A DNA stretch of 64,000 nucleotides from Escherichia coli (GTDB lineage Bacteria; Pseudomonadota; Gammaproteobacteria; Enterobacterales; Enterobacteriaceae): assembly GCF_013122565.1 (NCBI RefSeq), contig NZ_CP053258.1; one strand, written 5' to 3'. Below the pieces are notes generated by a model that worked only from the letters and a program-made list of their open reading frames with translations, did no database searches and had not been told where the DNA came from. Below are positions 3,062 through 27,164 of this stretch, in pieces; position 1 is the first letter of the stretch, and each line of letters opens with the position of its first letter. Position numbers and translations under genes: made by a program.

Positions 3062-4003
3062 ATGCGCGAAAAGGATTATGTCGTAATTATAGGTTCGGCG
3101 AATATTGATGTCGCCGGATATTCACATGAATCATTAAATTATGCGGATTCAAATCCAGGTAAAATAAAATTTACGCCTGGTGGAGTCGGGCGCAATATTG
3201 CACAAAACCTGGCGTTGCTGGGGAATAAAGCCTGGCTACTTAGCGCAGTAGGCAGTGATTTTTATGGTCAATCGTTGCTAACGCAAACCAATCAATCTGG
3301 TGTTTATGTCGATAAATGCCTGATTGTGCCGGGAGAAAATACGTCGAGCTATTTATCATTACTCGATAATACCGGTGAAATGCTGGTTGCTATAAATGAC
3401 ATGAATATTAGCAACGCTATTACAGCTGAATATCTCGCACAGCACCGTGAATTTATTCAGAGGGCAAAGGTCATTGTCGCGGACTGTAATATCAGTGAAG
3501 AGGCACTGGCATGGATTCTGGATAATGCCGCCAACGTACCCGTATTTGTCGATCCTGTTTCCGCGTGGAAATGTGTCAAAGTGCGCGACCGTCTAAATCA
3601 GATCCACACTCTCAAACCAAACCGCCTTGAAGCGGAAACCCTGAGTGGGATTGCGCTGTCAGGGCGTGCAGATGTGGCAAAAGTTGCTGCCTGGTTCCAT
3701 CAACATGGCCTGAACCGACTGGTATTGAGCATGGGCGGCGACGGCGTTTATTACAGCGATATCAGCGGTGAAAGTGGCTGGTCTGCGCCGATCAAAACCA
3801 ATGTCATTAATGTTACCGGAGCGGGCGATGCCATGATGGCGGGGCTTGCTTCGTGTTGGGTAGACGGAATGCCGTTTGCCGAATCTGTTCGTTTCGCACA
3901 GGGATGTTCGTCAATGGCGCTCTCCTGTGAATACACCAATAACCCCGATTTATCGATTGCCAACGTTATATCGTTAGTGGAGAACGCAGAATGTCTGAAT
4001 TAA
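3062..4003 (+). CDS. psuK: Pseudouridine kinase (PfkB family)
   Basis: 313-aa ORF MREKDYVVIIGSANIDV...; matches E. coli YeiC/PsuK; 13-nt overlap with psuG start. Confidence 0.92.
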   Translation: MREKDYVVIIGSANIDVAGYSHESLNYADSNPGKIKFTPGGVGRNIAQNLALLGNKAWLLSAVGSDFYGQSLLTQTNQSGVYVDKCLIVPGENTSSYLSLLDNTGEMLVAINDMNISNAITAEYLAQHREFIQRAKVIVADCNISEEALAWILDNAANVPVFVDPVSAWKCVKVRDRLNQIHTLKPNRLEAETLSGIALSGRADVAKVAAWFHQHGLNRLVLSMGGDGVYYSDISGESGWSAPIKTNVINVTGAGDAMMAGLASCWVDGMPFAESVRFAQGCSSMALSCEYTNNPDLSIANVISLVENAECLN

Positions 4004-4929
4004 AAATTTCCCCTGAATTATTACAAATTTCCCCGGAAGTGCAGGACGCTTTAAAAAACAAAAAACCGGTTGTGGCGCTGGAATCGACCATTATTTCTCA
4101 CGGGATGCCGTTCCCACAAAATGCCCAGACCGCAATTGAAGTTGAAGAAACTATTCGTAAACAGGGCGCAGTACCTGCCACTATCGCCATTATTGGTGGC
4201 GTGATGAAAGTGGGTTTAAGCAAAGAAGAAATTGAATTACTGGGTCGTGAAGGGCATAACGTGACTAAAGTTAGTCGTCGCGATTTACCTTTTGTCGTTG
4301 CCGCCGGAAAAAATGGCGCAACCACCGTGGCTTCAACGATGATTATTGCGGCGCTTGCCGGAATTAAAGTATTTGCCACCGGCGGAATTGGTGGTGTTCA
4401 TCGCGGGGCGGAACATACCTTCGATATTTCTGCCGATTTGCAAGAACTGGCAAATACTAATGTCACCGTTGTTTGTGCCGGGGCGAAATCTATTCTCGAT
4501 TTAGGCTTAACTACCGAATATTTAGAAACTTTCGGTGTACCGCTAATTGGCTATCAGACCAAAGCGTTGCCTGCGTTTTTCTGCCGCACCAGCCCGTTTG
4601 ACGTCAGCATTCGTCTCGACAGCGCCAGTGAAATTGCCCGTGCAATGGCGGTGAAATGGCAAAGCGGGCTGAACGGTGGCCTCGTGGTAGCGAACCCGAT
4701 CCCGGAACAGTTTGCGATGCCGGAACAGACCATTAACGCTGCGATTGATCAGGCAGTGGCAGAAGCCGAAGAACAGGGAGTCATTGGTAAAGAAAGTACG
4801 CCATTCCTGCTGGCGCGCGTTGCTGAGCTGACCGGCGGTGACAGCCTGAAATCCAACATCCAGCTGGTGTTCAACAACGCCATTCTGGCGAGCGAAATTG
4901 CCAAAGAATATCAGCGTCTCGCGGGTTAA
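3991..4929 (+). CDS. psuG: Pseudouridine-5'-phosphate glycosidase
   Basis: 312-aa ORF MSELKISPELLQISPEVQDALKNKKPVVALESTIISHGMPFP...; matches YeiN/PsuG. Confidence 0.92.
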   Translation: MSELKISPELLQISPEVQDALKNKKPVVALESTIISHGMPFPQNAQTAIEVEETIRKQGAVPATIAIIGGVMKVGLSKEEIELLGREGHNVTKVSRRDLPFVVAAGKNGATTVASTMIIAALAGIKVFATGGIGGVHRGAEHTFDISADLQELANTNVTVVCAGAKSILDLGLTTEYLETFGVPLIGYQTKALPAFFCRTSPFDVSIRLDSASEIARAMAVKWQSGLNGGLVVANPIPEQFAMPEQTINAAIDQAVAEAEEQGVIGKESTPFLLARVAELTGGDSLKSNIQLVFNNAILASEIAKEYQRLAG

Positions 4930-5022
4930 TTTCTGACGGGCAGAAAGCCGTCGCCCGTACTCATCAAGCATACCAAAACCTGGCGCTGACGCCGGGTTTA
5001 CTGGCATGAAGGGAAAATCATT

Positions 5023-6273
5023 ATGGATATAATGAGAAGTGTTGTGGGGATGGTGGTGTTACTGGCAATAGCATTTCTGTTGTCAGTGAATAAAAAGAGC
5101 ATCAGTTTGCGCACGGTTGGAGCCGCACTGCTGCTGCAAATCGCTATTGGTGGCATCATGCTCTACTTCCCACCGGGAAAATGGGCAGTAGAACAGGCGG
5201 CATTAGGCGTTCATAAAGTGATGTCTTACAGTGATGCCGGTAGCGCCTTTATTTTTGGTTCGCTGGTTGGGCCGAAAATGGATGTCCTGTTTGACGGTGC
5301 GGGTTTTATCTTCGCCTTTCGCGTACTTCCGGCGATTATCTTCGTCACTGCGCTCATTAGTCTGCTGTACTACATTGGCGTGATGGGGCTGCTGATTCGC
5401 ATCCTTGGCAGCATTTTCCAGAAAGCCCTCAACATCAGCAAAATCGAATCTTTTGTCGCAGTCACCACTATTTTCCTCGGGCAAAATGAGATCCCGGCGA
5501 TCGTTAAACCGTTTATCGATCGCATGAATCGCAACGAGTTGTTTACCGCAATTTGTAGCGGGATGGCGTCCATTGCTGGTTCGATGATGATTGGTTATGC
5601 CGGAATGGGCGTACCAATTGACTACCTGTTAGCGGCATCGCTGATGGCGATCCCCGGCGGTATTTTGTTTGCACGTATTCTTAGCCCGGCAACCGAGCCT
5701 TCGCAGGTCACATTTGAAAATCTGTCGTTCAGCGAAACGCCGCCAAAAAGCTTTATCGAAGCGGCGGCGAGCGGTGCGATGACCGGGCTGAAAATCGCCG
5801 CTGGTGTGGCGACGGTGGTCATGGCGTTTGTCGCAATTATTGCGCTGATCAACGGCATTATCGGCGGAATTGGCGGCTGGTTTGGTTTTGCCAATGCCTC
5901 TCTGGAAAGTATTTTTGGCTATGTGCTGGCACCGCTGGCGTGGATCATGGGTGTGGACTGGAGTGATGCCAATCTTGCGGGTAGCCTGATTGGGCAGAAA
6001 CTGGCGATTAACGAATTCGTCGCTTACCTGAGTTTCTCCCCATACCTGCAAACGGGCGGCACGCTGGAAGTGAAAACCATTGCGATTATCTCCTTTGCGC
6101 TTTGTGGTTTTGCTAACTTTGGTTCTATCGGTGTTGTCGTTGGCGCATTTTCGGCTATTTCGCCAAAACGTGCTCCGGAAATCGCTCAGCTTGGTTTACG
6201 GGCGCTGGCAGCAGCAACGCTTTCCAACCTGATGAGCGCGACTATTGCCGGGTTCTTTATTGGTTTAGCTTGA
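5023..6273 (+). CDS. psuT: NupC-family nucleoside transporter (putative pseudouridine transporter)
   Basis: 416-aa polytopic membrane ORF; matches YeiM/PsuT; close paralogue of nupX at 8210. Confidence 0.9.
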   Translation: MDIMRSVVGMVVLLAIAFLLSVNKKSISLRTVGAALLLQIAIGGIMLYFPPGKWAVEQAALGVHKVMSYSDAGSAFIFGSLVGPKMDVLFDGAGFIFAFRVLPAIIFVTALISLLYYIGVMGLLIRILGSIFQKALNISKIESFVAVTTIFLGQNEIPAIVKPFIDRMNRNELFTAICSGMASIAGSMMIGYAGMGVPIDYLLAASLMAIPGGILFARILSPATEPSQVTFENLSFSETPPKSFIEAAASGAMTGLKIAAGVATVVMAFVAIIALINGIIGGIGGWFGFANASLESIFGYVLAPLAWIMGVDWSDANLAGSLIGQKLAINEFVAYLSFSPYLQTGGTLEVKTIAIISFALCGFANFGSIGVVVGAFSAISPKRAPEIAQLGLRALAAATLSNLMSATIAGFFIGLA

Positions 6274-6279
6274 GTTTTA

Positions 6280-6319
6280 TTGCCGGATGTACTCGCTTAT
6301 TAAGCGTTGCATCCGGCAA
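6280..6319. repeat. REP-like palindrome between convergent psuT and yeiL
   Basis: ttgccggatg ... gcatccggcaa inverted repeat immediately after psuT stop. Confidence 0.55.
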
Positions 6320-6340
6320 TCGCACTATTGCAAATAATAT

Positions 6341-7000
6341 TTACTGCATCATCCCGGAGAATTTATTCTCCGGGTCCATCTCCAGCGCCAGTCCTGACAA
6401 CTGCTTTCTGTTTTTAATTAGATATCCTTTCTTGCTTTTAATTAATAAACCGTCGTGAATGAATTGTGCGAGAACATATAAAAGATGTCGATAAGAAACG
6501 CCTAAATACTCTGCCGCTTGCGTATGCTTTTCGTGATAAAGATCACCTTCTTGTGAGAGTAATATAAATGCTGCCAGGCGATTCACTAACGGAAATGATT
6601 GATTCTGAGTTAAAGAAACAATATTACGATAATTTTTATGACTTAAGGTGACGCAAAGTTTTCGTAAAAATAGGGTGTCGTTTAATAACAGCGGACGGTA
6701 ATGTTTCATAGGGAGCGCAAGGCACCAACACTCTTCAATAGCCTGTACCGCACGCGGTTCATGGTCTTTATCGATTAACTCAATCTCACCAATAAAACAG
6801 GGGGCGGCAAAGAAATCGATCAGCGACACGCGACCATTAGCTAGCGTGGCGTAAAGCCTGGCGCGGCCTCGCGTCAGGTAAAACAGCCAGGACGGCTGTT
6901 GCCCTTCCTGCACAATGTAGTCACGCGCTAAAAAATGAAACAGCCGCGTATCGGCTGAAACATCCGTTAAAAAGCAATCCTTAAACGCGGATTCACTCAT
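6341..7000 (-). CDS. yeiL: CRP/FNR-family transcriptional regulator YeiL
   Basis: ORF-track 6341..7039 begins at a GTG; internal ATG at 7000 gives the 219-aa protein [14 protein letters not shown]... matching YeiL. Confidence 0.88.
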
Positions 7001-7168
7001 CAATTGCTGCTTAAGATCATTATTGTGGATTTCTTTCACGATGTTTATCCGCTATGAGATTTCTCATATTTAGCATACGTACGCTGTTGTTAAGATTCAA
7101 TCATCGGCCCGATCGAAATTTCTTTGCTGTAGAAAAAATAACGCAACTGGAAACAGAGGAAATAAACA

Positions 7169-8110
7169 ATGGAAAAGAGAAAAATTATTCTGGATTGTGA
7201 TCCGGGTCATGATGATGCTATTGCTATAATGATGGCGGCGAAACATCCGGCAATAGATTTATTAGGCATCACTATTGTAGCGGGTAATCAGACGCTTGAT
7301 AAAACATTAATTAATGGCCTGAATGTTTGCCAGAAACTGGAGATTAATGTTCCGGTTTATGCGGGGATGCCACAACCCATTATGCGGCAACAAATCGTTG
7401 CCGATAATATTCACGGTGATACCGGACTGGATGGCCCGGTATTCGAGCCGCTGACCCGCCAGGCAGAAAGCACTCATGCGGTGAAATACATCATTGATAC
7501 CCTGATGGCAAGCGATGGCGATATCACTCTGGTGCCGGTTGGTCCGCTTTCAAATATCGCGGTGGCAATGCGTATGCAACCCGCGATCCTGCCCAAAATC
7601 CGTGAAATTGTGCTAATGGGCGGCGCTTACGGTACAGGCAACTTCACGCCATCTGCCGAGTTCAACATCTTTGCTGACCCGGAAGCCGCACGCGTGGTGT
7701 TCACCTCCGGCGTTCCATTAGTGATGATGGGCCTCGATCTTACCAACCAGACCGTTTGCACCCCGGACGTGATTGCACGAATGGAAAGGGCAGGCGGCCC
7801 TGCCGGAGAGCTGTTCAGCGACATCATGAACTTCACTCTCAAAACCCAGTTCGAAAACTACGGCCTGGCTGGCGGCCCGGTGCACGACGCCACCTGCATC
7901 GGTTATCTGATTAACCCTGATGGCATTAAAACCCAGGAGATGTACGTCGAAGTGGACGTCAACAGTGGCCCTTGCTATGGGCGTACCGTCTGCGACGAGC
8001 TGGGCGTTCTTGGCAAGCCCGCTAATACCAAAGTCGGCATCACTATTGATACCGACTGGTTCTGGGGCTTAGTCGAAGAGTGCGTGCGCGGCTACATCAA
8101 AACCCATTAA
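7169..8110 (+). CDS. rihB: Pyrimidine-specific ribonucleoside hydrolase
   Basis: 313-aa ORF with N-terminal DCDPGHDD nucleoside-hydrolase motif; matches RihB/YeiK. Confidence 0.93.
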
Positions 8111-12685: not shown

Positions 12686-13567
12686 ATGCACATCACCCTC
12701 CGGCAGTTGGAAGTTTTTGCAGAAGTATTGAAAAGTGGATCAACCACCCAGGCGTCGGTGATGCTGGCGTTGTCGCAATCAGCAGTGAGCGCAGCCTTGA
12801 CCGACCTGGAAGGGCAGCTTGGCGTTCAACTGTTTGATCGCGTGGGGAAAAGACTGGTTGTTAATGAACACGGGCGGCTGCTCTATCCGCGTGCGTTGGC
12901 ACTGCTTGAACAGGCGGTTGAAATCGAACAACTGTTTCGTGAAGACAACGGCGCGATTCGTATCTATGCCAGTAGTACCATCGGTAACTACATTCTGCCT
13001 GCAGTCATTGCCCGTTATCGCCATGATTATCCGCAGTTGCCGATTGAACTTAGCGTTGGGAACAGCCAGGACGTGATGCAAGCGGTACTGGATTTCCGCG
13101 TTGATATTGGCTTTATTGAAGGACCGTGCCACAGCACTGAAATCATTTCTGAACCGTGGCTGGAAGACGAGCTGGTGGTTTTCGCCGCGCCGACTTCGCC
13201 GTTGGCCCGTGGTCCGGTCACCTTAGAACAGCTGGCCGCTGCGCCGTGGATCCTGCGTGAACGCGGTTCCGGCACGCGAGAGATTGTCGATTATCTGTTG
13301 CTGTCACATTTACCGAAGTTTGAGATGGCGATGGAATTAGGTAACTCCGAGGCAATCAAACATGCGGTGCGTCATGGGTTGGGAATTAGTTGCCTGTCGC
13401 GACGGGTGATTGAAGATCAATTGCAGGCAGGCACATTAAGTGAAGTTGCGGTCCCTCTGCCGCGCCTGATGCGTACGTTGTGGCGTATACATCATCGGCA
13501 AAAACACCTTTCCAACGCGCTACGGCGCTTCCTGGACTATTGCGATCCCGCGAATGTCCCGCGTTAA
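12686..13567 (+). CDS. yeiE: LysR-family transcriptional regulator YeiE
   Basis: 293-aa ORF with N-terminal LysR HTH ([42 protein letters not shown]); matches YeiE. Confidence 0.92.
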
Positions 13568-13771
13568 GTTGCTGTACAAGAACATGCTGGTGCTGTGTCG
13601 ATTTCGTGACGCAGCGCCCTCAGCATGCATTCGCCAGAAAAGAGATTGGCTGCTTTACTTATAATCCCTGGGCGATCATGAAGGTGTCTTATAACCGTGC
13701 ATTTCTGCCGGAAGGATTGCCAATCGTCTGCTACAATCGCGCCTCATTTTTAAGATGGATAGCATTTTTGT

Positions 13772-15241
13772 ATGGTTTCCGAAACTAAAACCACAGAAGC
13801 GCCGGGCTTACGCCGTGAATTAAAGGCGCGTCACCTGACGATGATTGCCATTGGCGGTTCCATCGGTACAGGTCTTTTTGTTGCCTCTGGCGCAACGATT
13901 TCTCAGGCAGGTCCGGGCGGGGCATTGCTCTCGTATATGCTGATTGGCCTGATGGTTTACTTCCTGATGACCAGTCTCGGTGAACTGGCTGCATATATGC
14001 CGGTTTCCGGTTCGTTTGCCACTTATGGTCAGAACTATGTTGAAGAAGGCTTTGGCTTCGCGCTGGGCTGGAACTACTGGTACAACTGGGCGGTGACTAT
14101 CGCCGTTGACCTGGTTGCAGCTCAGCTGGTCATGAGCTGGTGGTTCCCGGATACACCGGGCTGGATCTGGAGTGCGCTGTTCCTCGGCGTTATCTTCCTG
14201 CTGAACTACATCTCAGTTCGTGGCTTTGGTGAAGCGGAATACTGGTTCTCACTGATCAAAGTCACGACAGTTATTGTCTTTATCATCGTTGGCGTGCTGA
14301 TGATTATCGGTATCTTCAAAGGCGCGCAGCCTGCGGGCTGGAGCAACTGGACAATCGGCGAAGCGCCGTTTGCTGGTGGTTTTGCGGCGATGATCGGCGT
14401 AGCTATGATTGTCGGCTTCTCTTTCCAGGGAACCGAGCTGATCGGTATTGCTGCAGGCGAGTCCGAAGATCCGGCGAAAAACATTCCACGCGCGGTACGT
14501 CAGGTGTTCTGGCGAATCCTGTTGTTCTATGTGTTCGCGATCCTGATTATCAGCCTGATTATTCCGTACACCGATCCGAGCCTGCTGCGTAACGATGTTA
14601 AAGACATCAGCGTCAGTCCGTTCACCCTGGTGTTCCAGCACGCGGGTCTGCTCTCTGCGGCGGCGGTGATGAACGCAGTTATTCTGACGGCGGTGCTGTC
14701 AGCAGGTAACTCCGGTATGTATGCGTCTACTCGTATGCTGTACACCCTGGCGTGTGACGGTAAAGCGCCGCGCATTTTCGCTAAACTGTCGCGTGGTGGC
14801 GTGCCGCGTAATGCGCTGTATGCGACGACGGTGATTGCCGGTCTGTGCTTCCTGACCTCCATGTTTGGCAACCAGACGGTATACCTGTGGCTGCTGAACA
14901 CCTCCGGGATGACCGGTTTTATCGCCTGGCTGGGGATTGCCATTAGCCACTATCGCTTCCGTCGCGGTTACGTATTGCAGGGACACGACATTAACGATCT
15001 GCCGTACCGTTCAGGTTTCTTCCCATTGGGGCCGATCTTCGCATTCATTCTGTGTCTGATTATCACTTTGGGCCAGAACTACGAAGCGTTCCTGAAAGAT
15101 ACCATCGACTGGGGCGGCGTAGCGGCAACGTATATTGGTATCCCGCTGTTCCTGATTATTTGGTTCGGCTACAAGCTGATTAAAGGAACTCACTTCGTAC
15201 GTTACAGCGAAATGAAGTTCCCGCAGAACGATAAGAAATAA
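13772..15241 (+). CDS. lysP: Lysine-specific permease (APC family)
   Basis: 489-aa ORF MVSETKTTEAPGLRRELKARHLTMIAIGG...; matches LysP. Confidence 0.95.
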   Translation: MVSETKTTEAPGLRRELKARHLTMIAIGGSIGTGLFVASGATISQAGPGGALLSYMLIGLMVYFLMTSLGELAAYMPVSGSFATYGQNYVEEGFGFALGWNYWYNWAVTIAVDLVAAQLVMSWWFPDTPGWIWSALFLGVIFLLNYISVRGFGEAEYWFSLIKVTTVIVFIIVGVLMIIGIFKGAQPAGWSNWTIGEAPFAGGFAAMIGVAMIVGFSFQGTELIGIAAGESEDPAKNIPRAVRQVFWRILLFYVFAILIISLIIPYTDPSLLRNDVKDISVSPFTLVFQHAGLLSAAAVMNAVILTAVLSAGNSGMYASTRMLYTLACDGKAPRIFAKLSRGGVPRNALYATTVIAGLCFLTSMFGNQTVYLWLLNTSGMTGFIAWLGIAISHYRFRRGYVLQGHDINDLPYRSGFFPLGPIFAFILCLIITLGQNYEAFLKDTIDWGGVAATYIGIPLFLIIWFGYKLIKGTHFVRYSEMKFPQNDKK

Positions 15242-15261
15242 GTTTCCTCCCTTCCTTGCTA

Positions 15262-15288
15262 AGCCCTCTCAACCGAGAGGGCTTTTTC
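15262..15288 (+). terminator. Intrinsic terminator of lysP
   Basis: Stem agccctctc / gagagggct with aacc loop, then TTTTT. Confidence 0.8.
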
Positions 15289-15336
15289 AATTCCATTTCC
15301 CTGACAAATCATGCGGATATAAAATTTAACATTTGG

Positions 15337-15366
15337 ATTGATAATTGTTATCGTTTGCATTATCGT
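15337..15366 (+). promoter_or_regulatory. Fur box in the cirA promoter
   Basis: attgATAATTGTTATCgtttgcATTATCg: overlapping GATAAT/ATTATC hexamers typical of Fur sites, about 170 nt upstream of the cirA ATG. Confidence 0.7.
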
Positions 15367-15533
15367 TACGCCGCAATCAAAAAAGGCTGACAAATCAGAG
15401 GCTGTTCCGGCTTTCTGGGATGATCACCTGCATACAAATAAGTCCACCGCGATGCTGCCGTACGCAAGGGGACGTGAAGAAGATGTGAGCGATAACCCAT
15501 TTTATTTTCGTAGTTACCTCATGGAGATATGGA

Positions 15534-17513
15534 ATGTTTAGGTTGAACCCTTTCGTACGGGTCGGGCTGTGTTTGTCCGCTATTTCTTGTGCATGGCCTG
15601 TGTTAGCGGTCGATGATGATGGCGAAACGATGGTTGTCACTGCATCTTCCGTTGAACAAAACCTTAAAGATGCACCTGCCAGTATCAGCGTCATTACCCA
15701 GGAAGACCTGCAGCGAAAACCGGTACAGAATCTGAAGGATGTCCTCAAAGAAGTGCCTGGCGTACAACTGACGAACGAAGGGGATAACCGTAAGGGCGTT
15801 AGTATTCGTGGTCTGGACAGCAGCTATACCCTGATTCTTGTCGACGGTAAACGCGTTAACTCCCGCAATGCCGTCTTCCGCCACAATGATTTCGATCTGA
15901 ACTGGATCCCGGTCGATTCCATCGAACGTATTGAAGTGGTTCGTGGCCCGATGTCGTCGCTGTACGGTTCCGATGCGCTCGGCGGTGTTGTGAATATCAT
16001 CACCAAAAAAATCGGTCAGAAATGGTCGGGTACCGTTACCGTCGATACCACCATTCAGGAACATCGCGATCGCGGTGATACCTATAACGGTCAGTTCTTT
16101 GCCAGCGGACCATTAATTGACGGTGTGCTGGGAATGAAAGCTTACGGCAGCCTGGCAAAACGTGAAAAGGATGATCCGCAAAACTCAACGACCACCGATA
16201 CTGGAGAAACGCCGCGTATTGAAGGATTCTCCAGCCGCGACGGCAATGTCGAATTTGCCTGGACACCGAATCAAAATCACGATTTTACTGCCGGATACGG
16301 TTTCGACCGTCAGGATCGTGATTCCGACTCGCTGGACAAAAACCGCCTGGAACGCCAGAACTACTCCGTCAGCCATAATGGGCGTTGGGATTACGGCACC
16401 AGCGAACTGAAATACTACGGTGAGAAAGTCGAGAACAAAAACCCTGGCAACAGCAGCCCGATAACTTCCGAAAGCAATACGGTCGACGGCAAATACACGT
16501 TGCCGCTGACGGCGATTAATCAGTTTCTCACAGTTGGCGGTGAATGGCGTCACGACAAACTTAGCGATGCGGTGAACCTGACCGGGGGAACCAGCTCCAA
16601 AACGTCTGCCAGCCAGTACGCGCTGTTTGTGGAAGATGAATGGCGGATCTTCGAGCCGCTGGCGCTGACGACCGGCGTACGTATGGACGATCATGAAACC
16701 TACGGTGAACACTGGAGTCCGCGTGCCTACCTGGTTTATAACGCCACCGACACCGTAACGGTGAAAGGGGGCTGGGCGACGGCATTTAAAGCGCCTTCTC
16801 TGTTGCAACTTAGCCCTGACTGGACGAGCAATTCCTGCCGTGGCGCATGTAAGATTGTGGGTAGCCCGGATCTGAAACCAGAAACCAGCGAAAGTTGGGA
16901 GCTGGGGCTTTACTATATGGGTGAAGAAGGCTGGCTGGAAGGGGTTGAATCCAGCGTTACCGTTTTCCGTAACGATGTGAAAGATCGCATCAGCATCAGC
17001 CGTACGTCTGACGTCAATGCTGCACCGGGCTACCAAAACTTTGTCGGTTTTACAGCGGGCGGTGTGCCGGTATTCAGCTACTACAACGTTAACAAAGCAC
17101 GTATTCAGGGCGTGGAAACCGAACTGAAAATTCCGTTCAACGATGAATGGAAACTGTCACTCAACTACACCTACAACGATGGTCGTGATGTCAGCAACGG
17201 CGAAAATAAACCGCTATCCGATCTGCCGTTCCATACTGCTAACGGTACGCTGGACTGGAAACCGCTGGCGCTGGAAGACTGGTCATTCTATGTTTCTGGT
17301 CACTATACCGGGCAGAAACGAGCCGACAGCGCGACGGCTAAAACACCGGGCGGTTATACCATCTGGAATACCGGCGCGGCCTGGCAGGTGACCAAAGATG
17401 TCAAACTGCGCGCAGGCGTGCTGAACCTTGGCGACAAGGATCTCAGTCGTGACGACTACAGCTATAACGAAGACGGACGTCGTTACTTTATGGCAGTGGA
17501 TTATCGCTTCTGA
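15534..17513 (+). CDS. cirA: TonB-dependent catecholate siderophore / colicin I receptor
   Basis: 659-aa ORF with signal peptide, TonB box (ETMVVTAS) and C-terminal ...AVDYRF; matches CirA. Confidence 0.95.
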
Positions 17514-17520
17514 TGAGAAG

Positions 17521-17547
17521 ATGCCCGGCGCGGATCCTGCCGGGCAT
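17521..17547. terminator. GC-rich hairpin between convergent cirA and the island transporter (possible bidirectional terminator, no U-tract)
   Basis: atgcccggc gcggatcct gccgggcat: 9-bp perfect stem. Confidence 0.35.
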
Positions 17548-17571
17548 AATGCCAGAAATTCGGTTCTGGAT

Positions 17572-18894
17572 TTATAACCGATGAAATTTTGCCAGTAAGG
17601 CCAGTGAAAATGTTGTCAGCAAAATGGTAATGACGGCGTAAATATACACGCCTGACCATTCCCAACTGTTTTTCACCATAATAACTGGAAGCCCTGCCAT
17701 TGCCGCGCCTACATAACTAAATAAGCCCCTGAACCCAGTAATGGAACCTGCCGCATCTTTATGCGTAACATCAAGACATCCGACAGCGAATAACATATGT
17801 GGTCCATATAATGCAAACCCCATGATTGTAAAAAGAATAGCCGTTAATGTGTAGGAGACGTCCTGCACCAGCGGCACGAGAACGATGCAAATACATAAGG
17901 CGATGGCAAACATTAATCCGGTCATCCAGCGGTTACTTTTAAACATAAAATCGGACAAGTACCCCGCCAGTAATCCCCCTGCAAGTCCACCTGCTTCAAA
18001 CCAGGATATAATGGAGTTCGCTTTAATCAGGCTCCAGTTATGAACCTGAGAATAATAAATTTGTGGCCAGTCATTGAGGATGGTGCGTGCAATATAGACT
18101 GACATATCCCCGAGGATAATCAGCCAAACTAATGGGTTGGTAAGAATATATTTAATGAAAATTTGCCAAAAACTCAGATCTACCGGGCTTGCTTTAACTT
18201 GTGCAAGTTCTGTCGGGTCGTTGCGCCACTTACCTACGTTAGGCAAACCGAGTGTGCCAGGACGATCTTTAATCGTAAACAGGGCAACAACCCCCATAAT
18301 CAGCGATATTACACCCGGAACATAAAAGCCCATTTTCCAGCTGCCACTAAAAGCAATGGCAAAGCTTGTCAGGAGAGGCGCAAGACTACCGCCAATATTA
18401 TGCGCCGCTTCAACAACTGCCCACCAGCGCCCGCGTTCATTTTTAGAAAACCACGAGGCCATAATTTTTGCCATCGGCGGAAAACTGGTACCCTGAAGAA
18501 TAGCATTAAGGCTATACAGGATATAGAACGCAGCAACGCTGTCTGAAAAACCGAAAAGAATGTTAACAATACCGACGCCAATAAGTACGGGGCCGGTCAT
18601 TGCGCGTGGGTTAATTTTATCGACTAACATGCCCCCTACAAACTTCATGGAGCCATAAAGAATGTAAAAGACCGACGACATGATAGCGAAATCTTGTGCG
18701 GTTAATGACGTATCCGTCAACATCGCCGGCATGGCCGCAGAGAAATTCTTGCGGGTTAAATAAAATACGGCATAAGAGATAAATACAGAGGTGATGATTT
18801 CAATACGAAATTTTTTATAAGTATGATCAACTTCTTCTTTCGGTTTGACCACTGGTTGGTCGGCCTGGCTGAAAATAAATTTTTTCAAGCTCAT
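17572..18894 (-). CDS. Organophosphate:phosphate antiporter family MFS transporter (GlpT/UhpT/PgtP-like); accessory
   Basis: 440-aa 12-TM ORF; N-terminal VDHTYKKFRIEII and YLTRKNF, WFSKNERGRWWAVVEAAHNIGG and YGPHMLF closely parallel GlpT/PgtP signature regions recalled from E. coli/Salmonella; RBS aaggaaa before the ATG. Confidence 0.8.
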   Translation of the reverse strand: MSLKKFIFSQADQPVVKPKEEVDHTYKKFRIEIITSVFISYAVFYLTRKNFSAAMPAMLTDTSLTAQDFAIMSSVFYILYGSMKFVGGMLVDKINPRAMTGPVLIGVGIVNILFGFSDSVAAFYILYSLNAILQGTSFPPMAKIMASWFSKNERGRWWAVVEAAHNIGGSLAPLLTSFAIAFSGSWKMGFYVPGVISLIMGVVALFTIKDRPGTLGLPNVGKWRNDPTELAQVKASPVDLSFWQIFIKYILTNPLVWLIILGDMSVYIARTILNDWPQIYYSQVHNWSLIKANSIISWFEAGGLAGGLLAGYLSDFMFKSNRWMTGLMFAIALCICIVLVPLVQDVSYTLTAILFTIMGFALYGPHMLFAVGCLDVTHKDAAGSITGFRGLFSYVGAAMAGLPVIMVKNSWEWSGVYIYAVITILLTTFSLALLAKFHRL

Positions 18895-18926
18895 CGTGAG
18901 TTTCCTTTTCTGTGAACCTTATGGTG

Positions 18927-19814
18927 CTATAGTTTTTCTTCTATAAAAAAGAGAAGCGACTCGAAACCATTAAAATTAATCTGGTTAGTAACTTTTTCCC
19001 GGGTTTTAGGTTTTGCTTTCCATGCCACGCCATACCCGGCATGCAGAAGCATAGGAATATCATTAGCGCCATCTCCGCAGGCAATGATGTTTTCACGACA
19101 AATAGATAACTCTGTCGCCAAATTTATCAGGGTTTGCTTTTTCTTTTCTGCATTCATAATGGGAAAGGTAATTTTGTCAGTTAATAGATCTTCCTGAATG
19201 CGTACAGAGTTAGAAAATGCAAAATCAAGTTGATATTTTTCTTTTAATCTCTCAGTAAAAATATCTAAACCGCCGGATATAATTGCCGTCTTGAATCCTT
19301 TTTCTTTAAGAATGGGAAGAATAGTTTTAAGACCTGGTGAAAGGGTCATCTGTTCACAAACCTGATGCAATATATCTTTATGTGTTCCTTTAAGCATGCC
19401 AATTCGGCGGGTAAAACTGGTATCAAAATCGATTTTTCCTTCCATCGCTTCACGGGTCAGCGCGGTGATTTTTTCAGAGATCCCGAGTCTACGGGCTATT
19501 TCATCGACGCCTTCCTCTTCAACAAAGGTGGAATCCATATCAAAGGCAATAATTCCCTCAGCCGGTAAGTCCGTAGGTTTGCGGAAAAAATCAAAATGAT
19601 GATGATCAGCACGGTGACGTAAACCAGCATAAAAATCAGGATTGGTTACATCATCTGTTAATACTAGCTTTAGATACTCTTTATTTATTTGCTCACTGTA
19701 ATTCGTTGTTAACGAAAACACCGAGGATGAAACCTTTAAATGTTGCAAATAATGTTCCAGACATTTTTTGGTGATGTCGATGCCTGTTGGCGACAAGAAA
19801 TAAATAATCGTCAT
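18927..19814 (-). CDS. Phosphoserine-phosphatase-like HAD hydrolase (SerB paralogue); accessory
   Basis: 295-aa ORF with HAD motif I FDMDSTF, EAMEGKIDFDTSFTRRIGMLKG and GDGANDIPML...AWKAKPK closely paralleling E. coli SerB catalytic-domain motifs; no signal peptide. Confidence 0.8.
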   Translation of the reverse strand: MTIIYFLSPTGIDITKKCLEHYLQHLKVSSSVFSLTTNYSEQINKEYLKLVLTDDVTNPDFYAGLRHRADHHHFDFFRKPTDLPAEGIIAFDMDSTFVEEEGVDEIARRLGISEKITALTREAMEGKIDFDTSFTRRIGMLKGTHKDILHQVCEQMTLSPGLKTILPILKEKGFKTAIISGGLDIFTERLKEKYQLDFAFSNSVRIQEDLLTDKITFPIMNAEKKKQTLINLATELSICRENIIACGDGANDIPMLLHAGYGVAWKAKPKTREKVTNQINFNGFESLLFFIEEKL

Positions 19815-20023
19815 TTACCGCTCCTTTTTATCTGCAATGATTATAATAAGGTTTCGTAGCGGCTGATGTATCTAACAATCACAGTTGTGAATGTTAAATA
19901 AAAGATAAAAAAGTGCTTTTTTTGATACCCTGAAATAATAAGATACTAAAAGTACCATTTTTGATACCTTTGCCAGGATATAACGAATAACGAGTTTCAA
20001 CGTTGAAGGAATCATTTACAAAA

Positions 20024-21376
20024 ATGGAAAGCTGCTTAGATATATTCAAGATAGTTATAGGTCCATCCAGTTCCCGCACTGTCGGGCCAATGCGTGCGGC
20101 TTATAATTTTGTCTCACAATTGAAACAGCGAGAAATGTTACCTTTGTTGCGGAAAATTGATGTCGAACTTTATGGCGCACTGTCATTAAGCCGCAAGTGC
20201 CATAATGTTGATGTGGCGATTTATCTCGGTTTGCAAGGTCACTTACCTGACAGCGTTGATATCCGCATGGAAATGTCCGCCATCAGGCGTGCGGAAACTG
20301 AGGCGACGCTGGAAGTTATGCCTGGTGTCAACGTTGGTGTAGCCATTATTTCTAATCCACAGGCGCACCCGGGGCATCCTTATGCGATGACATTTCGTGC
20401 CAGAGATGACTGGTTTACGCTTTATGAAGAAACCTGCTTTTCTGTCGGCGACGGTCAGGTTCAAAAAGCGGGAGAGGCGATGATTCCCTCCTCAGTCACT
20501 CCACATCCTTTTGAATTCCAGAACGCAAACGAATTATTAAAACTTTGTCAGCAAAACGGATTATCTGTTGCGGCATTAATGATGAAAAACGAACTACACT
20601 GCCAGACTTCTGATTTTTTGCATGACGATCTCAATAAAAAATGGGAAGTAATGAAGGATGCGGTCTATCGCGGGATGCATACAGAGGGATTACTTCCTGG
20701 TCCGTATCAGGTTAACCGTCGTGCCTGTGCTTTATATAAATCGTTGCAGGCAAAGGGGTTTACCAATGACTTCCTGACTACGATCAATTGGGTCAATACT
20801 TTTGCCATTGCGGTGAGCGAAGAAAATGCTGCAGGTGGACGCGTCGTGACAGCACCCACCAACGGCGCGAGCGGTATTATCCCGGCCGTACTGTGTTGGT
20901 ATGACAAATTCATTCACGAGCTTGATACTTACTCCGTTACCCGCTTTTTTCTGACCGCCGGTGCCATAGCCATTCTGTTCAAAAAAAATGCCTCTATTCT
21001 GGGGTCTGAAGTTGGATGTCAGGGGGAAATAGGCGTTGCCAGTTCAATGGCGGCAGCAGGATTAGCAGAACTTATGGGCGGGTCAGTGACTCAGGTACTC
21101 AGCGCGGCAGAAATTGCGATGGAACACCATTTAGGTTTGACCTGTGATCCAGTTGGCGGGCAGGTACAAATTCCTTGTATTGAACGAAATGCTATTTCAG
21201 CCGTGAAAGCTATCAACGCAACGACGATGGCTTTGAGTCGCATAAGCGAGCCGTGCATTACGCTGGATGAGATAATTTCCGCGATGTATGAAACCGGAAA
21301 GGATATGAGCGCTAAATACCGGGAAACTTATCATGGCTGTCTTAGCAAATTGCAGCCAAGAAAAAAGGACGCGTAA
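20024..21376 (+). CDS. L-serine dehydratase (Fe-S, SdaA/SdaB/TdcG family paralogue); accessory
   Basis: ORF-track 20003..21376 starts at a TTG; ATG at 20024 ([23 protein letters not shown]...) aligns with the SdaA N-terminus [23 protein letters not shown]; conserved [25 protein letters not shown] and LTCDPV..GQVQ.PCIERNA blocks. Confidence 0.85.
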
Positions 21377-21377
21377 G

Positions 21378-21767
21378 ATGAAATACAATACCATGAATAA
21401 CAACGAAATTATTTTATCTCTGTGCGCACGTATTAAAGAAACGCGGATCTCATTATCATTGACCCAGCAGCAGTTAGCCGATCGTGCATTGGTGGGCATT
21501 GCAACGGTCAAGCGGATTGAAAAGGGGGGAAGTTTAAATCTTGATACCCTCATTTCTCTTCTGCGCGCGCTGAATAAATTGCAAAATCTCGATGCCATAT
21601 TGTTCGAAGCAGAAATGCGTAATTTCAATGAAAATACTTCCAGCGGCGAAGGGGCAGGGCGACTTCAGGTGCGCCAGCAACTGACAGATTTAAACCAGAA
21701 GTCTCCAGCCCCGCACGCAGATGACCGTGATTTTAGTACGGCGCTGGAAAATACTCTTTGCTGGTGA
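21378..21767 (+). CDS. XRE-family (Cro/CI-type HTH) transcriptional regulator; accessory
   Basis: ORF-track 21333..21767; ATG at 21378 (MKYNTMNNNEIILSLCARIKETRISLSLTQQQLADRALVGIATVKRIEKGG) begins 1 nt after the dehydratase stop; typical HTH_XRE signature. Confidence 0.75.
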   Translation: MKYNTMNNNEIILSLCARIKETRISLSLTQQQLADRALVGIATVKRIEKGGSLNLDTLISLLRALNKLQNLDAILFEAEMRNFNENTSSGEGAGRLQVRQQLTDLNQKSPAPHADDRDFSTALENTLCW

Positions 21768-22637
<870 letters not shown>

Positions 22638-22861
22638 TCATCATACCGTTTATTCAATGTGCTGTGAGTAACTTTCACTTCCGTATTTGCATAACGATGT
22701 TTTAACATCTGCTGATGAAAGGCAGCGGCAATTACAATAATTATCGCTGTGAATACTGGATTATGTGCGCCGCCTCACGCACAATAATCAGGCTGTAAAT
22801 CAGCTTAATAACTTTGCCCCCACGCAGGGCGGAGGCGTCACACCTGCAGGAGAAATCATAA

Positions 22862-23530
22862 ATGCCATCACTCAGTAAAGAAGCGGCCCTGGTTCATGAA
22901 GCGTTAGTTGCGCGAGGACTGGAAACACCGCTGCGCCCGCCCGTGCATGAAATGGATAACGAAACGCGCAAAAGCCTTATTGCTGGTCATATGACCGAAA
23001 TCATGCAGCTGCTGAATCTCGACCTGGCTGATGACAGTTTGATGGAAACGCCGCATCGCATCGCTAAAATGTATGTCGATGAAATTTTCTCCGGTCTGGA
23101 TTACGCCAACTTCCCGAAAATCACCCTCATTGAAAACAAAATGAAGGTCGATGAAATGGTCACCGTGCGCGATATCACTCTGACCAGTACCTGTGAACAC
23201 CATTTTGTTACCATCGATGGCAAAGCGACGGTGGCTTATATCCCGAAAGATTCGGTGATCGGTCTGTCAAAAATTAACCGTATCGTGCAGTTCTTTGCCC
23301 AGCGTCCGCAGGTGCAGGAACGTCTGACGCAGCAAATTCTTATTGCGCTACAAACGCTGCTGGGCACCAATAACGTGGCTGTCTCTATCGACGCGGTGCA
23401 TTACTGCGTGAAGGCGCGTGGCATCCGCGATGCAACCAGTGCCACGACAACGACCTCTCTTGGTGGATTGTTCAAATCCAGTCAGAATACGCGCCACGAG
23501 TTTCTGCGCGCTGTGCGTCATCACAACTGA
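22862..23530 (+). CDS. folE: GTP cyclohydrolase I
   Basis: 222-aa [27 protein letters not shown]...; matches FolE. Confidence 0.95.
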
Positions 23531-23546
23531 TTAAAAGGCAGGAACC

Positions 23547-24704
23547 ATGGAGCGCAACGTCACGCTCGATTTTGTTCGCGGCGTCGCCATTCTGGGGATC
23601 CTGCTATTAAACATCAGCGCCTTTGGGCTACCAAAGGCGGCTTATCTCAATCCCGCCTGGTACGGCGCTATTACGCCGCAGGATGCATGGACCTGGGCAT
23701 TTCTCGATCTCATCGGCCAGGTGAAATTCCTCACGCTTTTTGCGCTGCTGTTTGGTGCTGGCCTGCAAATGTTGCTGCCCCGTGGCAGACGCTGGATCCA
23801 GTCGCGGTTAACGCTGTTAGTCTTGCTGGGCTTTATTCACGGTTTATTGTTCTGGGACGGCGATATTCTGCTGGCTTACGGGCTGGTGGGCTTAATCTGC
23901 TGGCGGCTGGTGCGCGATGCGCCATCGGTAAAAAGCCTGTTTAATACAGGCGTCATGCTTTATCTGGTGGGGCTTGGCGTTTTGCTGTTATTGGGGCTGA
24001 TTTCCGACAGCGAGACCAGCCGCGCCTGGACGCCGGATGCATCGGCTATTTTGTATGAAAAATACTGGAAGCTTCACAGCGGCGTTGAAGCGATCAGTAA
24101 TCGTGCCGATGGTGTTGGCAACAGTTTACTGGCACTGGGCGCACAGTATGGCTGGCAACTGGCTGGGATGATGCTCATTGGTGCGGCGCTGATGCGCAGC
24201 GGCTGGCTGAAAGGGCAGTTCAGCTTACGTCACTATCGTCGTACTGGTTTTGTGCTGGTGGCGATTGGGGTGACCATTAACCTTCCTGCCATCGCCCTGC
24301 AATGGCAGCTGGACTGGGCGTATCGCTGGTGTGCCTTCTTACTTCAGATGCCGCGGGAACTGAGTGCGCCGTTTCAGGCGATTGGCTATGCGTCGCTGTT
24401 TTATGGCTTCTGGCCGCAATTGAGCCGCTTTAAGCTGGTGCTGGCGATCGCCTGCGTCGGACGGATGGCGCTGACCAACTATCTATTGCAAACGCTGATT
24501 TGTACCACGCTTTTTTATCACCTCGGTTTGTTTATGCAGTTTGACCGTCTGGAATTGCTGGCGTTTGTTATTCCGGTATGGCTGGCTAATATCCTCTTCT
24601 CTGTTATCTGGCTGCGTTACTTCCGCCAGGGGCCGGTGGAATGGCTCTGGCGTCAGTTAACTTTGCGTGCTGTCGGACCGACAATATCTAAAACATCAAG
24701 ATAA
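23547..24704 (+). CDS. yeiB: DUF418-family inner-membrane protein YeiB
   Basis: 385-aa polytopic membrane ORF matching YeiB. Confidence 0.88.
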   Translation: MERNVTLDFVRGVAILGILLLNISAFGLPKAAYLNPAWYGAITPQDAWTWAFLDLIGQVKFLTLFALLFGAGLQMLLPRGRRWIQSRLTLLVLLGFIHGLLFWDGDILLAYGLVGLICWRLVRDAPSVKSLFNTGVMLYLVGLGVLLLLGLISDSETSRAWTPDASAILYEKYWKLHSGVEAISNRADGVGNSLLALGAQYGWQLAGMMLIGAALMRSGWLKGQFSLRHYRRTGFVLVAIGVTINLPAIALQWQLDWAYRWCAFLLQMPRELSAPFQAIGYASLFYGFWPQLSRFKLVLAIACVGRMALTNYLLQTLICTTLFYHLGLFMQFDRLELLAFVIPVWLANILFSVIWLRYFRQGPVEWLWRQLTLRAVGPTISKTSR

Positions 24705-24845
24705 CGATCTGGATCACATTCGTTAACAAAACGGCTGTAACCGTTTCCATTGCTGTGACTCGATTCACGAAGTCCTGTAGTCAGTGCTGACAAAATAGCC
24801 GCCAGCAAGCAGTCATTTACTGCAATCTCATAACAGGTAGTGAAT

Positions 24846-25886
24846 ATGATCACCATTCGTGATGTAGCGCGTCAGGCTGGCGTCTCTGTGGCAACGGTTT
24901 CCCGGGTGCTCAATAACAGCACGCTGGTCAGTGCCGACACGCGTGAAGCAGTAATGAAAGCCGTGAGTGAGCTGGATTATCGGCCAAACGCCAATGCCCA
25001 GGCGCTGGCAACTCAGGTTAGCGATACCATTGGCGTGGTGGTGATGGACGTTTCTGATGCGTTTTTCGGCGCGCTGGTAAAAGCGGTGGATCTGGTCGCC
25101 CAGCAGCATGAGAAATACGTGCTAATCGGCAATAGCTATCATGAAGCGGAAAAAGAGCGTCACGCTATTGAGGTGTTAATTCGCCAGCGTTGTAATGCGT
25201 TGATTGTTCACTCAAAAGCATTGAGTGACGATGAACTGGCACAATTTATGGATAACATTCCCGGTATGGTGTTAATCAACCGCGTTGTGCCGGGGTACGC
25301 CCATCGTTGCGTTTGCCTGGATAATCTCAGCGGTGCCCGAATGGCGACGCGCATGTTGCTGAATAACGGTCATCAACGTATTGGTTATCTTTCTTCCAGC
25401 CACGGCATTGAAGATGACGCCATGCGTAAAGCAGGCTGGATGAGTGCGTTGAAAGAGCAGGATATTATTCCGCCGGAAAGCTGGATTGGCACTGGTACGC
25501 CGGACATGCCGGGCGGTGAGGCGGCGATGGTTGAACTGCTGGGGCGCAATCTACAACTTACCGCTGTATTTGCTTATAACGACAATATGGCCGCTGGCGC
25601 ACTGACAGCATTAAAAGATAATGGCATTGCGATTCCGTTACATCTCTCAATCATCGGTTTCGATGATATTCCCATCGCCCGTTACACCGACCCGCAATTA
25701 ACGACCGTGCGTTATCCCATTGCTTCAATGGCTAAATTAGCCACCGAACTGGCCTTGCAGGGGGCAGCAGGCAATATTGATCCTCGTGCCAGCCACTGTT
25801 TTATGCCGACGTTAGTGCGTCGTCATTCTGTCGCAACTCGCCAGAATGCGGCGGCGATCACTAACTCAACAAATCAGGCGATGTAA
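24846..25886 (+). CDS. galS: LacI/GalR-family galactose isorepressor
   Basis: ORF-track 24840 is a GTG; ATG at 24846 gives 346-aa [25 protein letters not shown]... matching GalS. Confidence 0.92.
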
Positions 25887-25898
25887 CCGCTTTCAATC

Positions 25899-25914
25899 TG
25901 TGAGTGATTTCACA
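25899..25914 (+). promoter_or_regulatory. Consensus CRP site in the mgl control region
   Basis: TGTGA-gtgatt-TCACA, perfect CRP half-sites; lies just after the galS stop and upstream of mglB; an adjacent GalR/GalS-operator-like sequence tgtaaccgctttca overlaps the galS stop. Confidence 0.55.
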
Positions 25915-26165
25915 GTATCTTAACAATGTGATAGCTATGATTGCACCGTTTTAACGTTGTAACCCGTATGTAACAGTGAATAATCACTTTCACCGAGGTA
26001 ATAGCGTCATAACAACAATTAAAGCCGTTTTCTGGAGCGTTACCGGGCATGGAAGAACGAATTTTAAAAAGTAAGCTTCGGCGTTCAGTAACACTTCATT
26101 AACTCTACTGCCCCGCCGAGCATTTATCTCAAGCACTACCCTGCATAAGAAAAACCGGAGATACC

Positions 26166-27164
26166 ATGAATAAGAAGGTGTTAACCCTGTCTGCTGTGAT
26201 GGCCAGCATGTTATTCGGTGCCGCTGCACACGCTGCTGATACTCGCATTGGTGTAACAATCTATAAGTACGACGATAACTTTATGTCTGTAGTGCGCAAG
26301 GCTATTGAGCAGGATGCGAAAGCCGCGCCAGATGTTCAGCTGCTGATGAATGATTCTCAGAATGACCAGTCCAAGCAGAACGATCAGATCGACGTATTGC
26401 TGGCGAAAGGGGTGAAGGCACTGGCAATCAACCTGGTTGACCCAGCAGCTGCGGGTACGGTGATTGAGAAAGCGCGTGGGCAAAACGTGCCGGTGGTTTT
26501 CTTCAACAAAGAACCGTCTCGTAAGGCGCTGGATAGCTACGACAAAGCCTACTACGTTGGCACTGACTCCAAAGAGTCCGGCATTATTCAGGGCGATTTG
26601 ATTGCTAAACACTGGGCGGCGAATCAGGGATGGGATCTGAATAAAGACGGTCAGATTCAATTCGTACTACTGAAAGGTGAGCCGGGCCATCCGGATGCAG
26701 AAGCACGTACCACTTACGTGATTAAAGAGCTGAACGACAAAGGCATCAAAACTGAACAGTTACAGTTAGATACCGCTATGTGGGATACCGCTCAGGCGAA
26801 AGATAAGATGGACGCCTGGCTGTCTGGCCCGAACGCCAACAAAATCGAAGTGGTTATCGCCAACAACGATGCGATGGCAATGGGCGCGGTAGAAGCACTG
26901 AAAGCACACAACAAGTCCAGCATTCCGGTGTTTGGCGTCGATGCTCTGCCAGAAGCGCTGGCGCTGGTGAAATCCGGTGCACTGGCGGGCACCGTACTGA
27001 ACGATGCTAACAACCAGGCGAAAGCGACCTTTGATCTGGCGAAAAACCTGGCCGATGGCAAAGGTGCGGCTGATGGCACCAACTGGAAAATCGACAACAA
27101 AGTGGTCCGCGTACCTTATGTTGGCGTAGATAAAGACAACCTGGCTGAATTCAGCAAGAAATAA
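26166..27164 (+). CDS. mglB: Periplasmic galactose/glucose-binding protein
   Basis: 332-aa ORF with signal peptide [23 protein letters not shown]; matches MglB. Confidence 0.95.

Follow-up and report, generated by a model that had tools for sequence, protein, structure and literature searches.

In the 64-kb stretch of Escherichia coli DNA analyzed here (64,000 nucleotides of contig NZ_CP053258.1, assembly GCF_013122565.1; hereafter referred to as the window), a block of four genes spanning about 4.25 kb lies between cirA (15534-17513, plus strand) and yeiG (21768-22604, minus strand), and its possible role in the use of O-phospho-L-serine is the subject of this analysis. An earlier sequence-only reading had described cirA and yeiG as neighbors in K-12, and we found them separated by a spacer of just 31 bp in strain MG1655. 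The block is composed of two divergent transcription units. On the minus strand, a gene for a SerB-type HAD-IB (haloacid dehalogenase) phosphatase of 295 aa (18927-19814; orthologue of Salmonella STM2197) stands upstream of, and in the same operon as, a gene for an MFS transporter of the OPA family of 440 aa (17572-18894; STM2198 orthologue), which is a predicted phosphoserine:inorganic phosphate (Pi) antiporter; the gap between the two is 32 nt. On the plus strand, a paralogue of the Fe-S L-serine dehydratases of the single-chain type 2 (20024-21376, 450 aa; STM2196 orthologue) is followed by a gene for an XRE helix-turn-helix regulator (21378-21767, 129 aa; STM2195 orthologue), which starts 1 nt past the dehydratase stop and whose own stop abuts that of yeiG. 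The two units are separated by a divergent intergenic region of 209 nt (19815-20023) that carries candidate regulatory elements.

The gene identities and the two-unit arrangement proposed from the letters alone were borne out by NCBIfam matches, by the coordinates and by the PGAP names given in other E. coli genomes, which concur for all four genes. Two start codons were refined from conservation between species and from the way PGAP annotates a near-identical E. coli genome. The listed open reading frame (ORF) of the dehydratase begins with TTG at 20003, and the PGAP start, which is also the conserved one, is the ATG at 20024; for the XRE gene, an ORF from 21333 would overlap the dehydratase, and the PGAP start lies at 21378, with the same coordinates in E. 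coli S3. At the left junction (17514-17545), a hairpin is common to the convergent cirA and transporter genes and includes the inverted repeat gcccggcg...cgccgggc at 17523-17545. The K-12 spacer matches the window over its first 17 nt only (17514-17530) and then jumps to the yeiG stop. A search for structured RNA returned no credible Rfam match within 13000-25000. All four ORFs are full length against their orthologues, with dN/dS ratios of 0.02-0.05 (transporter), 0.11-0.22 (phosphatase), 0.05-0.14 (dehydratase) and 0.03-0.10 (regulator), which indicates that these are real genes under purifying selection.

The sequence-only reading had proposed mapping the block across E. coli, and a megablast survey of this kind found 89 carriers among 5426 complete E. 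coli genomes, with the block always on the chromosome and always at the cirA-yeiG site. The carriers comprise several haplotypes that are 94.8-97.9% identical to the block in the window, and the four ORFs are undamaged in the window, as they are in 85 of the 89 carriers, with IS1 insertions breaking the locus in two genomes (MB53 and strain 35). In a scan of one genome per species, subspecies of S. enterica, about nine Citrobacter species and Escherichia whittamii all had the complete block at the matching site, flanked by yeiG on one side and cirA/lysP on the other. The nearest cluster to the transporter is a Salmonella enterica cluster (91% identity; 6223 member sequences), and Scandinavium carries orthologues of the phosphatase and the dehydratase. 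Two orthologous transporter genes are altered, by a frameshift in one C. koseri genome (Citrobacter koseri NCTC10786, 6001-7321 of the locus examined, L019) and by a changed 3' end in the S. arizonae type strain (L011).

A second, divergent copy of the four families was found in one Salmonella assembly (GCA_040089445.1, contig ABSURO010000032.1, 8.6 kb; L051), where it occupies 3473-7434 in the order phosphatase, transporter, regulator and convergent dehydratase. Its proteins are 49-72% identical to those of the window, and it adjoins phage lysis and tail genes, a remnant of an IS66 transposase and an autotransporter. The module is therefore also present in a mobile context.

The block had been described by eye as AT-richer than its flanks, and the computed values agree: the four genes have a GC content of 0.38-0.47 and a GC content at third codon positions (GC3) of 0.34-0.47, against 0.51-0.54 and 0.58-0.64 in the flanking genes lysP (13772-15241, plus strand), cirA, yeiG and folE. 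However, the conclusion drawn from this composition, namely horizontal acquisition, was not upheld. We compared window positions 17572-21767 with loci L002 and L008-L021 and found that the GC3 of the transporter gene rises from 0.46 in Escherichia to about 0.55 in Citrobacter and 0.64 in Salmonella. In every genus, the highest AT content within the block is that of the phosphatase gene; the other Salmonella copies are not AT-rich. Because the Salmonella copies have near-native GC3, the AT bias is specific to the Escherichia lineage, with low expression, H-NS silencing and ancient allele replacement as possible causes.

Divergence at synonymous sites (dS) followed the flanks: between the window and E. 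coli S3 it was 0.05-0.10 in the block and 0.07 and 0.09 in cirA and yeiG, with a range of 0.05-0.09 for these two flanking genes within E. coli, and between the window and E. whittamii 0.26-0.54 in the block and 0.31-0.66 in the flanks; relative to Salmonella, dS was saturated in the block and about 1 in the flanks. Among the features used to recognize genomic islands, the block has the atypical composition and lacks mobility genes, a tRNA or repeat boundary, and divergence discordant with its flanks. Its junctions carry no insertion sequence (IS), integrase, tRNA or direct repeat, and there is no tRNA anywhere in the window; for these reasons, and because every E. coli match is chromosomal, an origin as a mobile element was rejected. 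A recent island, in which AT-rich DNA from an AT-rich donor was inserted between cirA and yeiG within E. coli, would fit the low GC and GC3, the small share of E. coli genomes with the block, the mobile setting of the divergent copy and the occurrence of an 82%-identical transporter in Gallibacterium, an AT-richer genus. We nevertheless consider it very unlikely, given the identical site in Salmonella, Citrobacter and E. whittamii, the agreement of block and flank dS, the plain ends, the near-native GC3 of the Salmonella copies, and pairwise distances suggesting that the alleles follow the species tree. Synteny across these genera, flank-like dS and the lack of mobility hallmarks together point to ancestral presence and loss in most E. 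coli, so that the simplest history would be that of an old, chromosomally fixed Escherichia-Salmonella-Citrobacter locus that was deleted in most E. coli, including K-12. This case shows that AT-richness by itself can mislead on horizontal transfer.

A locus with such a history might also be a silent remnant in Escherichia, drifting toward AT with no current function. The GC3 below that of the Salmonella and Citrobacter orthologues, the loss of the block by most E. coli, the IS1 insertions and the C. koseri frameshift, and the dN/dS of the phosphatase, the highest of the four, are what such decay might leave behind. The intact ORFs in the window and in nearly all carriers, a dN/dS of at most 0.22 even within Escherichia (0.02-0.05 for the transporter) and the retention of the regulatory repeats described below weigh so heavily in the opposite direction that we regard decay as highly improbable.

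The phosphatase scored 210 bits on the SerB equivalog model TIGR00338 (cut-off 144) and matched PDB entry 4EZE over its full length (E=6.5e-116). That entry, which is 290/295 identical to the Salmonella orthologue, is an unpublished structure deposited only as a haloacid dehalogenase-like hydrolase; we take it to be the S. Typhi protein t0658, a target of the Enzyme Function Initiative. HAD motifs I-IV are all present (D92-x-D94-S-T96, S180, K225 and D248/D252), and D92 and D94, the nucleophile and the acid, together with S180, K225, D248, N251 and D252 correspond to D11, D13, S99, K144, D167, N170 and D171 of the phosphoserine phosphatase (PSP) of M. jannaschii. In addition, E101, M124, F130 and R137 align with E20, M43, F49 and R56 of that enzyme, which we take from the published PSP structures to be the contacts of the serine moiety. 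Identity to K-12 SerB is 41% and is limited to the catalytic domain; the N-terminal domain (residues 1-85) holds most of the divergence and evolves fast. The genetic linkage of this phosphatase with a transporter and an enzyme that degrades serine implies that it serves catabolism rather than biosynthesis.

The transporter belongs to Pfam MFS_1 and matched the GlpT structure 1PW4 over residues 7-426 (E=2e-68) and, at about E=1e-51, human SLC37A4. Its best NCBIfam models are UhpC, PgtP and GlpT, and all three scores lie under the respective cut-offs: 422 bits on the UhpC model NF008661 (cut-off 564) and 216 bits on the PgtP model NF047787 (cut-off 750) exclude it from both equivalog groups. Identity ranges from 25 to 38% across UhpT, PgtP, GlpT and UhpC, with 38% to K-12 UhpC and 28% to PgtP. 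Residues R48, K84, H165, R270, E300, Y267 and Y394 are the equivalents of GlpT R45, K80, H165, R269, E299, Y266 and Y393, and R48, R270, K84 and H165 are invariant in an alignment with UhpC, UhpT, GlpT and PgtP. The MFS fold, the paired arginines of transmembrane helices (TM) 1 and 7, and the phosphate-site Lys and His place the protein in the OPA family, and the conservation of R48, R270, K84, H165 and E300 leads us to expect Pi-linked exchange. A role as a UhpC-like sensor was considered and rejected, as no uhpAB-like partner genes adjoin and the curated score is not reached.

Beyond this core, three positions set the transporter apart. E162 stands where UhpC, UhpT, GlpT and PgtP have Asn, and GlpT N162 presumably contacts the glycerol moiety. 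R389 aligns with UhpT K391 and with an Arg of PgtP, and T386 aligns with UhpT D388, which leaves the positive charge of R389 uncompensated, as in PgtP. The combination of E162, T386 and R389 is confined to the island-transporter clade in a set of 164 full-length family members; outside the clade all but one of these relatives lack E162, and acidic residues of any kind are almost absent from that position. The clade is narrow, with a single full-length representative among 1.84 billion 50%-identity cluster representatives. In a published summary, UhpT with an uncompensated K391 is described as changing its specificity from glucose 6-phosphate to phosphoenolpyruvate (PEP) and 3-phosphoglycerate (PMC12483993). 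One added acid and one added base in the pocket would suit a zwitterionic phospho-amino acid.

Linkage of such transporters to phosphatases was also found elsewhere. In Photobacterium lutimaris, and likewise on a metagenomic contig, a SerB-type phosphatase follows a transporter of 67-68% identity; the order is the reverse of that in the window, and these pairs occur without the dehydratase or the regulator. The divergent Salmonella copy likewise joins the two families and has the same transporter and dehydratase signatures as the window.

These observations bear on whether the transporter might carry some other anionic organophosphate, such as phosphoglycerate or PEP (as PgtP), phosphothreonine, or a hexose phosphate (as UhpC/UhpT), with the linkage not defining the substrate. 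The UhpC subfamily model as the best NCBIfam match, the uncompensated Arg in common with PgtP and the solitary transporter gene of Gallibacterium could all be read in this way. We judge this alternative to be unlikely because the scores fall far under the UhpC, PgtP and GlpT cut-offs, E162 is missing from all four characterized relatives and from nearly all others outside the clade, a SerB-type phosphatase adjoins repeatedly in three contexts whatever the gene order, and neither UhpA/UhpB-like nor PgtA/B/C-like partners are near.

Three further observations concern related transporters. A 54%-identical relative on a metagenomic contig (L005, 1993-4385) has Lys at position 389 and Asn at 162, and its divergent partner gene encodes a D-2-hydroxyacid dehydrogenase, not a phosphatase; these residues and this partner hint at a different carboxylated organophosphate as the substrate of that branch. 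Copies of the island transporter with about 90% identity occur in two large Salmonella "plasmid" records, which may be chromosomal pieces wrongly labeled as plasmids. Shigella invasion plasmids (S. flexneri pINV) have a more distant gene of the OPA-type MFS transporters, with 31% identity and the annotation ipgH or MFS transporter.

The dehydratase scored 545 bits on the L-serine ammonia-lyase model TIGR00720 (cut-off 345), contains the Pfam domains SDH_beta and SDH_alpha, and is 50% identical to K-12 SdaA. Residues C332, C374, C385 and H60 correspond to C343, C385, C396 and H61 of the Legionella L-serine dehydratase (LSD; 4RQO) and the Ser triplet is kept; with a single beta+alpha chain, three cluster cysteines and the equivalent of the catalytic His, the protein is an Fe-S enzyme of type 2. 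Two features depart from the canonical pattern of a GPSSSHT motif and a tail-in-mouth Cys. Arg18 replaces His19 of the Legionella enzyme (GPSSSRT against GPSSSHT) in 15/15 orthologues, whereas His is found in 105/105 canonical enzymes; the C-terminal Cys is absent from 14 of the 15 orthologues, including the protein in the window, and present in 100 of the 105 canonical enzymes. On the basis of these residues, the dehydratase forms a distinct subclade of the Fe-S serine dehydratases. A published summary of the Legionella LSD names His61 as the probable base and assigns to the C-terminal Cys458 two roles, as fourth ligand of the cluster and as a mimic of the substrate (PMC12647591).

The loss of the C-terminal Cys, the fixed Arg at the His19 position and the recurrence of both changes in the distant second copy would be expected if the enzyme acted not on L-serine but on a different substrate, such as some other beta-hydroxy or beta-substituted amino acid, or if it were controlled differently. 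With a score well over the TIGR00720 cut-off, with the cluster cysteines, the Ser triplet and the His61 equivalent kept, and with a co-located phosphatase whose product is serine, which makes serine the simplest reading, we consider this alternative to be quite unlikely. L-serine is most likely the substrate, while control, and possibly specificity, may differ from those of the canonical enzymes.

The XRE protein matched generic XRE NCBIfam models and Pfam HTH_3 (PF01381; residues 19-66, E=4e-9), which places it in this family, and it is conserved over its whole length, including the C-terminal 60 aa. A repeat search revealed a 21-nt motif that occurs twice in the divergent region, at 19909-19929 and 19948-19968, with the consensus AAAAGTATCGTTTTTGATACC and an inner GTATC-N6-GATAC. 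The pair was retained in 14/14 aligned genomes from three genera at a spacing of 39-40 nt, and a position weight matrix (PWM) built from the sites found none in the window beyond these two. Applied to the distant loci L051 and L053, the operator PWM gave weak matches only, which were not counted as evidence. If the XRE protein has operators here, the two repeats are the strongest candidates. Further conserved elements are ATCACAGTTGTGAAT at 19878-19892, also written ATCACAGnTGTGAAT, and a minus-strand TATAAT (about 19840-19845) that precedes the phosphatase gene. No canonical promoter was detected in the divergent region by a simple sigma-70 scan, whose overall counts did not exceed those of shuffled sequence; the promoters are inferred from the TATAAT and conservation alone. 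A binding site for CRP at the conserved TCACA-GT-TGTGA is not claimed, since the order and spacing of the half-sites are wrong for CRP.

Taken together, the locus is best explained as a module for phosphoserine import, dephosphorylation and deamination, an explanation that is wholly inferential and that we hold to be somewhat more probable than not. The MFS protein would act as an organophosphate:Pi antiporter that takes up O-phospho-L-serine and releases cytoplasmic Pi; the phosphate would be bound by the core known from GlpT and UhpT, with E162 meeting the amino group and the uncompensated R389 the carboxylate. The SerB-type phosphatase would then hydrolyze phosphoserine to L-serine and Pi, the latter feeding further antiport; the serine so formed, which is potentially toxic, would be broken down to pyruvate and ammonium by the Fe-S dehydratase. 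Translation of the XRE gene would be coupled to that of the dehydratase gene, and the XRE protein would control both promoters through the 21-nt repeats, with phosphoserine or serine as the effector. Overall, the cell would obtain carbon, nitrogen and energy from free phosphoserine, while phosphorus would be either recycled or gained. This logic had been proposed in the sequence-only reading from the combination of genes; it has now gained support at the level of residues and of gene neighborhoods, and it remains a prediction from sequence.

Several points weigh against this explanation. In Gallibacterium species and on a metagenomic contig (L006), a 77-82%-identical transporter stands solo among unrelated genes, which indicates that the transporter does not need a dedicated phosphatase; the linkage of the transporter with a phosphoserine phosphatase is recurrent, not obligatory. 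The placement of E162 and R389 in the pocket derives from alignment with GlpT and UhpT and from mutagenesis literature, not from a ligand-bound structure. The replacement of His19 by Arg and the missing C-terminal Cys mean that the substrate or the control of the dehydratase may differ. Moreover, enteric bacteria already free Pi from phosphoserine in the periplasm, and the physiological need for the module is thus unproven.

The strongest form of the proposal is that the transporter is the first phospho-amino-acid:Pi antiporter and that, with the phosphatase and a de-regulated, tail-less dehydratase, it makes up a phosphoserine-scavenging pathway that is core in Salmonella and Citrobacter and polymorphic in E. 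coli. We advance this only tentatively, as we think it a little more apt to fail than to hold. Such a pathway could define a niche on phosphoserine derived from phosphoproteins or host cells, for example from milk casein, egg-yolk phosvitin or the host cytosol. The parts themselves are of known kinds, and the locus is already annotated generically in many genomes and includes one orphan structure. If the proposal is true, phospho-amino acids would be a new substrate class for the GlpT/UhpT/PgtP antiporter family, with E162 and R389 as two candidate specificity residues should the prediction hold, and a function would be provided for the Salmonella/Citrobacter core locus STM2195-STM2198 and for the orphan structure 4EZE. 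It would further make the presence/absence polymorphism in E. coli the loss of a catabolic trait and define a distinct subclade of Fe-S serine dehydratases without the auto-inhibitory C-terminal cysteine. The practical stakes are modest and concern nutrient use in the gut, in food and in host cells, and the supply of phosphoserine in strains for genetic-code expansion.

Some differences were also detected in the flanking core genes. CirA of the window has a 4-aa in-frame deletion together with substitutions in one loop at residues ~506-514 (FETGANGRRIPV in K-12, FTAGG----VPV in the window), and the best nucleotide identity of its gene among the 5426 complete E. coli genomes is 98.9%. CirA is a receptor for colicin, phage and siderophore-drug, and the loop change may thus be a selected surface variant. 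On the other side, yeiG is followed by folE and yeiB, and the folE-mglB stretch (22862-26800) has a best identity of ~99.0% among complete RefSeq E. coli, with 97.9% for the four-gene block.

Among the nearest known systems is the locus STM2195-STM2198 of S. Typhimurium LT2 (STM14_2708-2711 in 14028S; the t0658 region in Typhi), which is orthologous and lies at the same chromosomal site, with amino acid identities of 91% (transporter), 62% (phosphatase), 72% (dehydratase) and 75% (regulator). It differs from the window in not being AT-rich, apart from the phosphatase gene. This locus is known only through annotation and high-throughput lists: insertions in STM2195 (the regulator), which has no K-12 counterpart, were depleted in Typhimurium in a Tn-seq table (PMC3487940), and mutants of STM14_2709 (the dehydratase) were fitter under iron restriction (bioRxiv 10.1101/2021.07.28.454258). 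A 2023 survey of organophosphate use in Salmonella covers GlpT, UhpT and PgtP only (PMC10715179). Our full-text literature search found no functional study of the locus or of phosphoserine transport, and the earlier statement that no characterized phosphoserine uptake system of such a design is known in E. coli was in line with this.

Like the OPA antiporters PgtP, UhpT and GlpT of E. coli and Salmonella (organophosphate:Pi antiporters, MFS family 2.A.1.4), the island transporter is a 12-TM MFS protein of ~440 aa with Arg in TM1 and TM7. The uncompensated base at the position of UhpT K391 is the only feature beyond the family core that it has in common with PgtP. It differs from these antiporters in being paired with a cytoplasmic phosphatase and in having Glu at the position of GlpT N162, and whereas the Uhp and Pgt systems are under two-component control, it sits with an XRE regulator. 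The phosphatase resembles SerB and the M. jannaschii PSP in the four HAD motifs and the serine-holding residues, and its PGAP name is SerB; however, it is a second copy beside a K-12-type housekeeping serB, and its first 85 residues show no sequence relationship to the N-domain of SerB. Similarly, the dehydratase has the single beta+alpha chain, the three cluster Cys and the His61 equivalent of SdaA, SdaB, TdcG and the Legionella LSD, but it differs from them in the Arg that replaces the invariant His19, in the missing Cys tail and in being co-transcribed with its own regulator.

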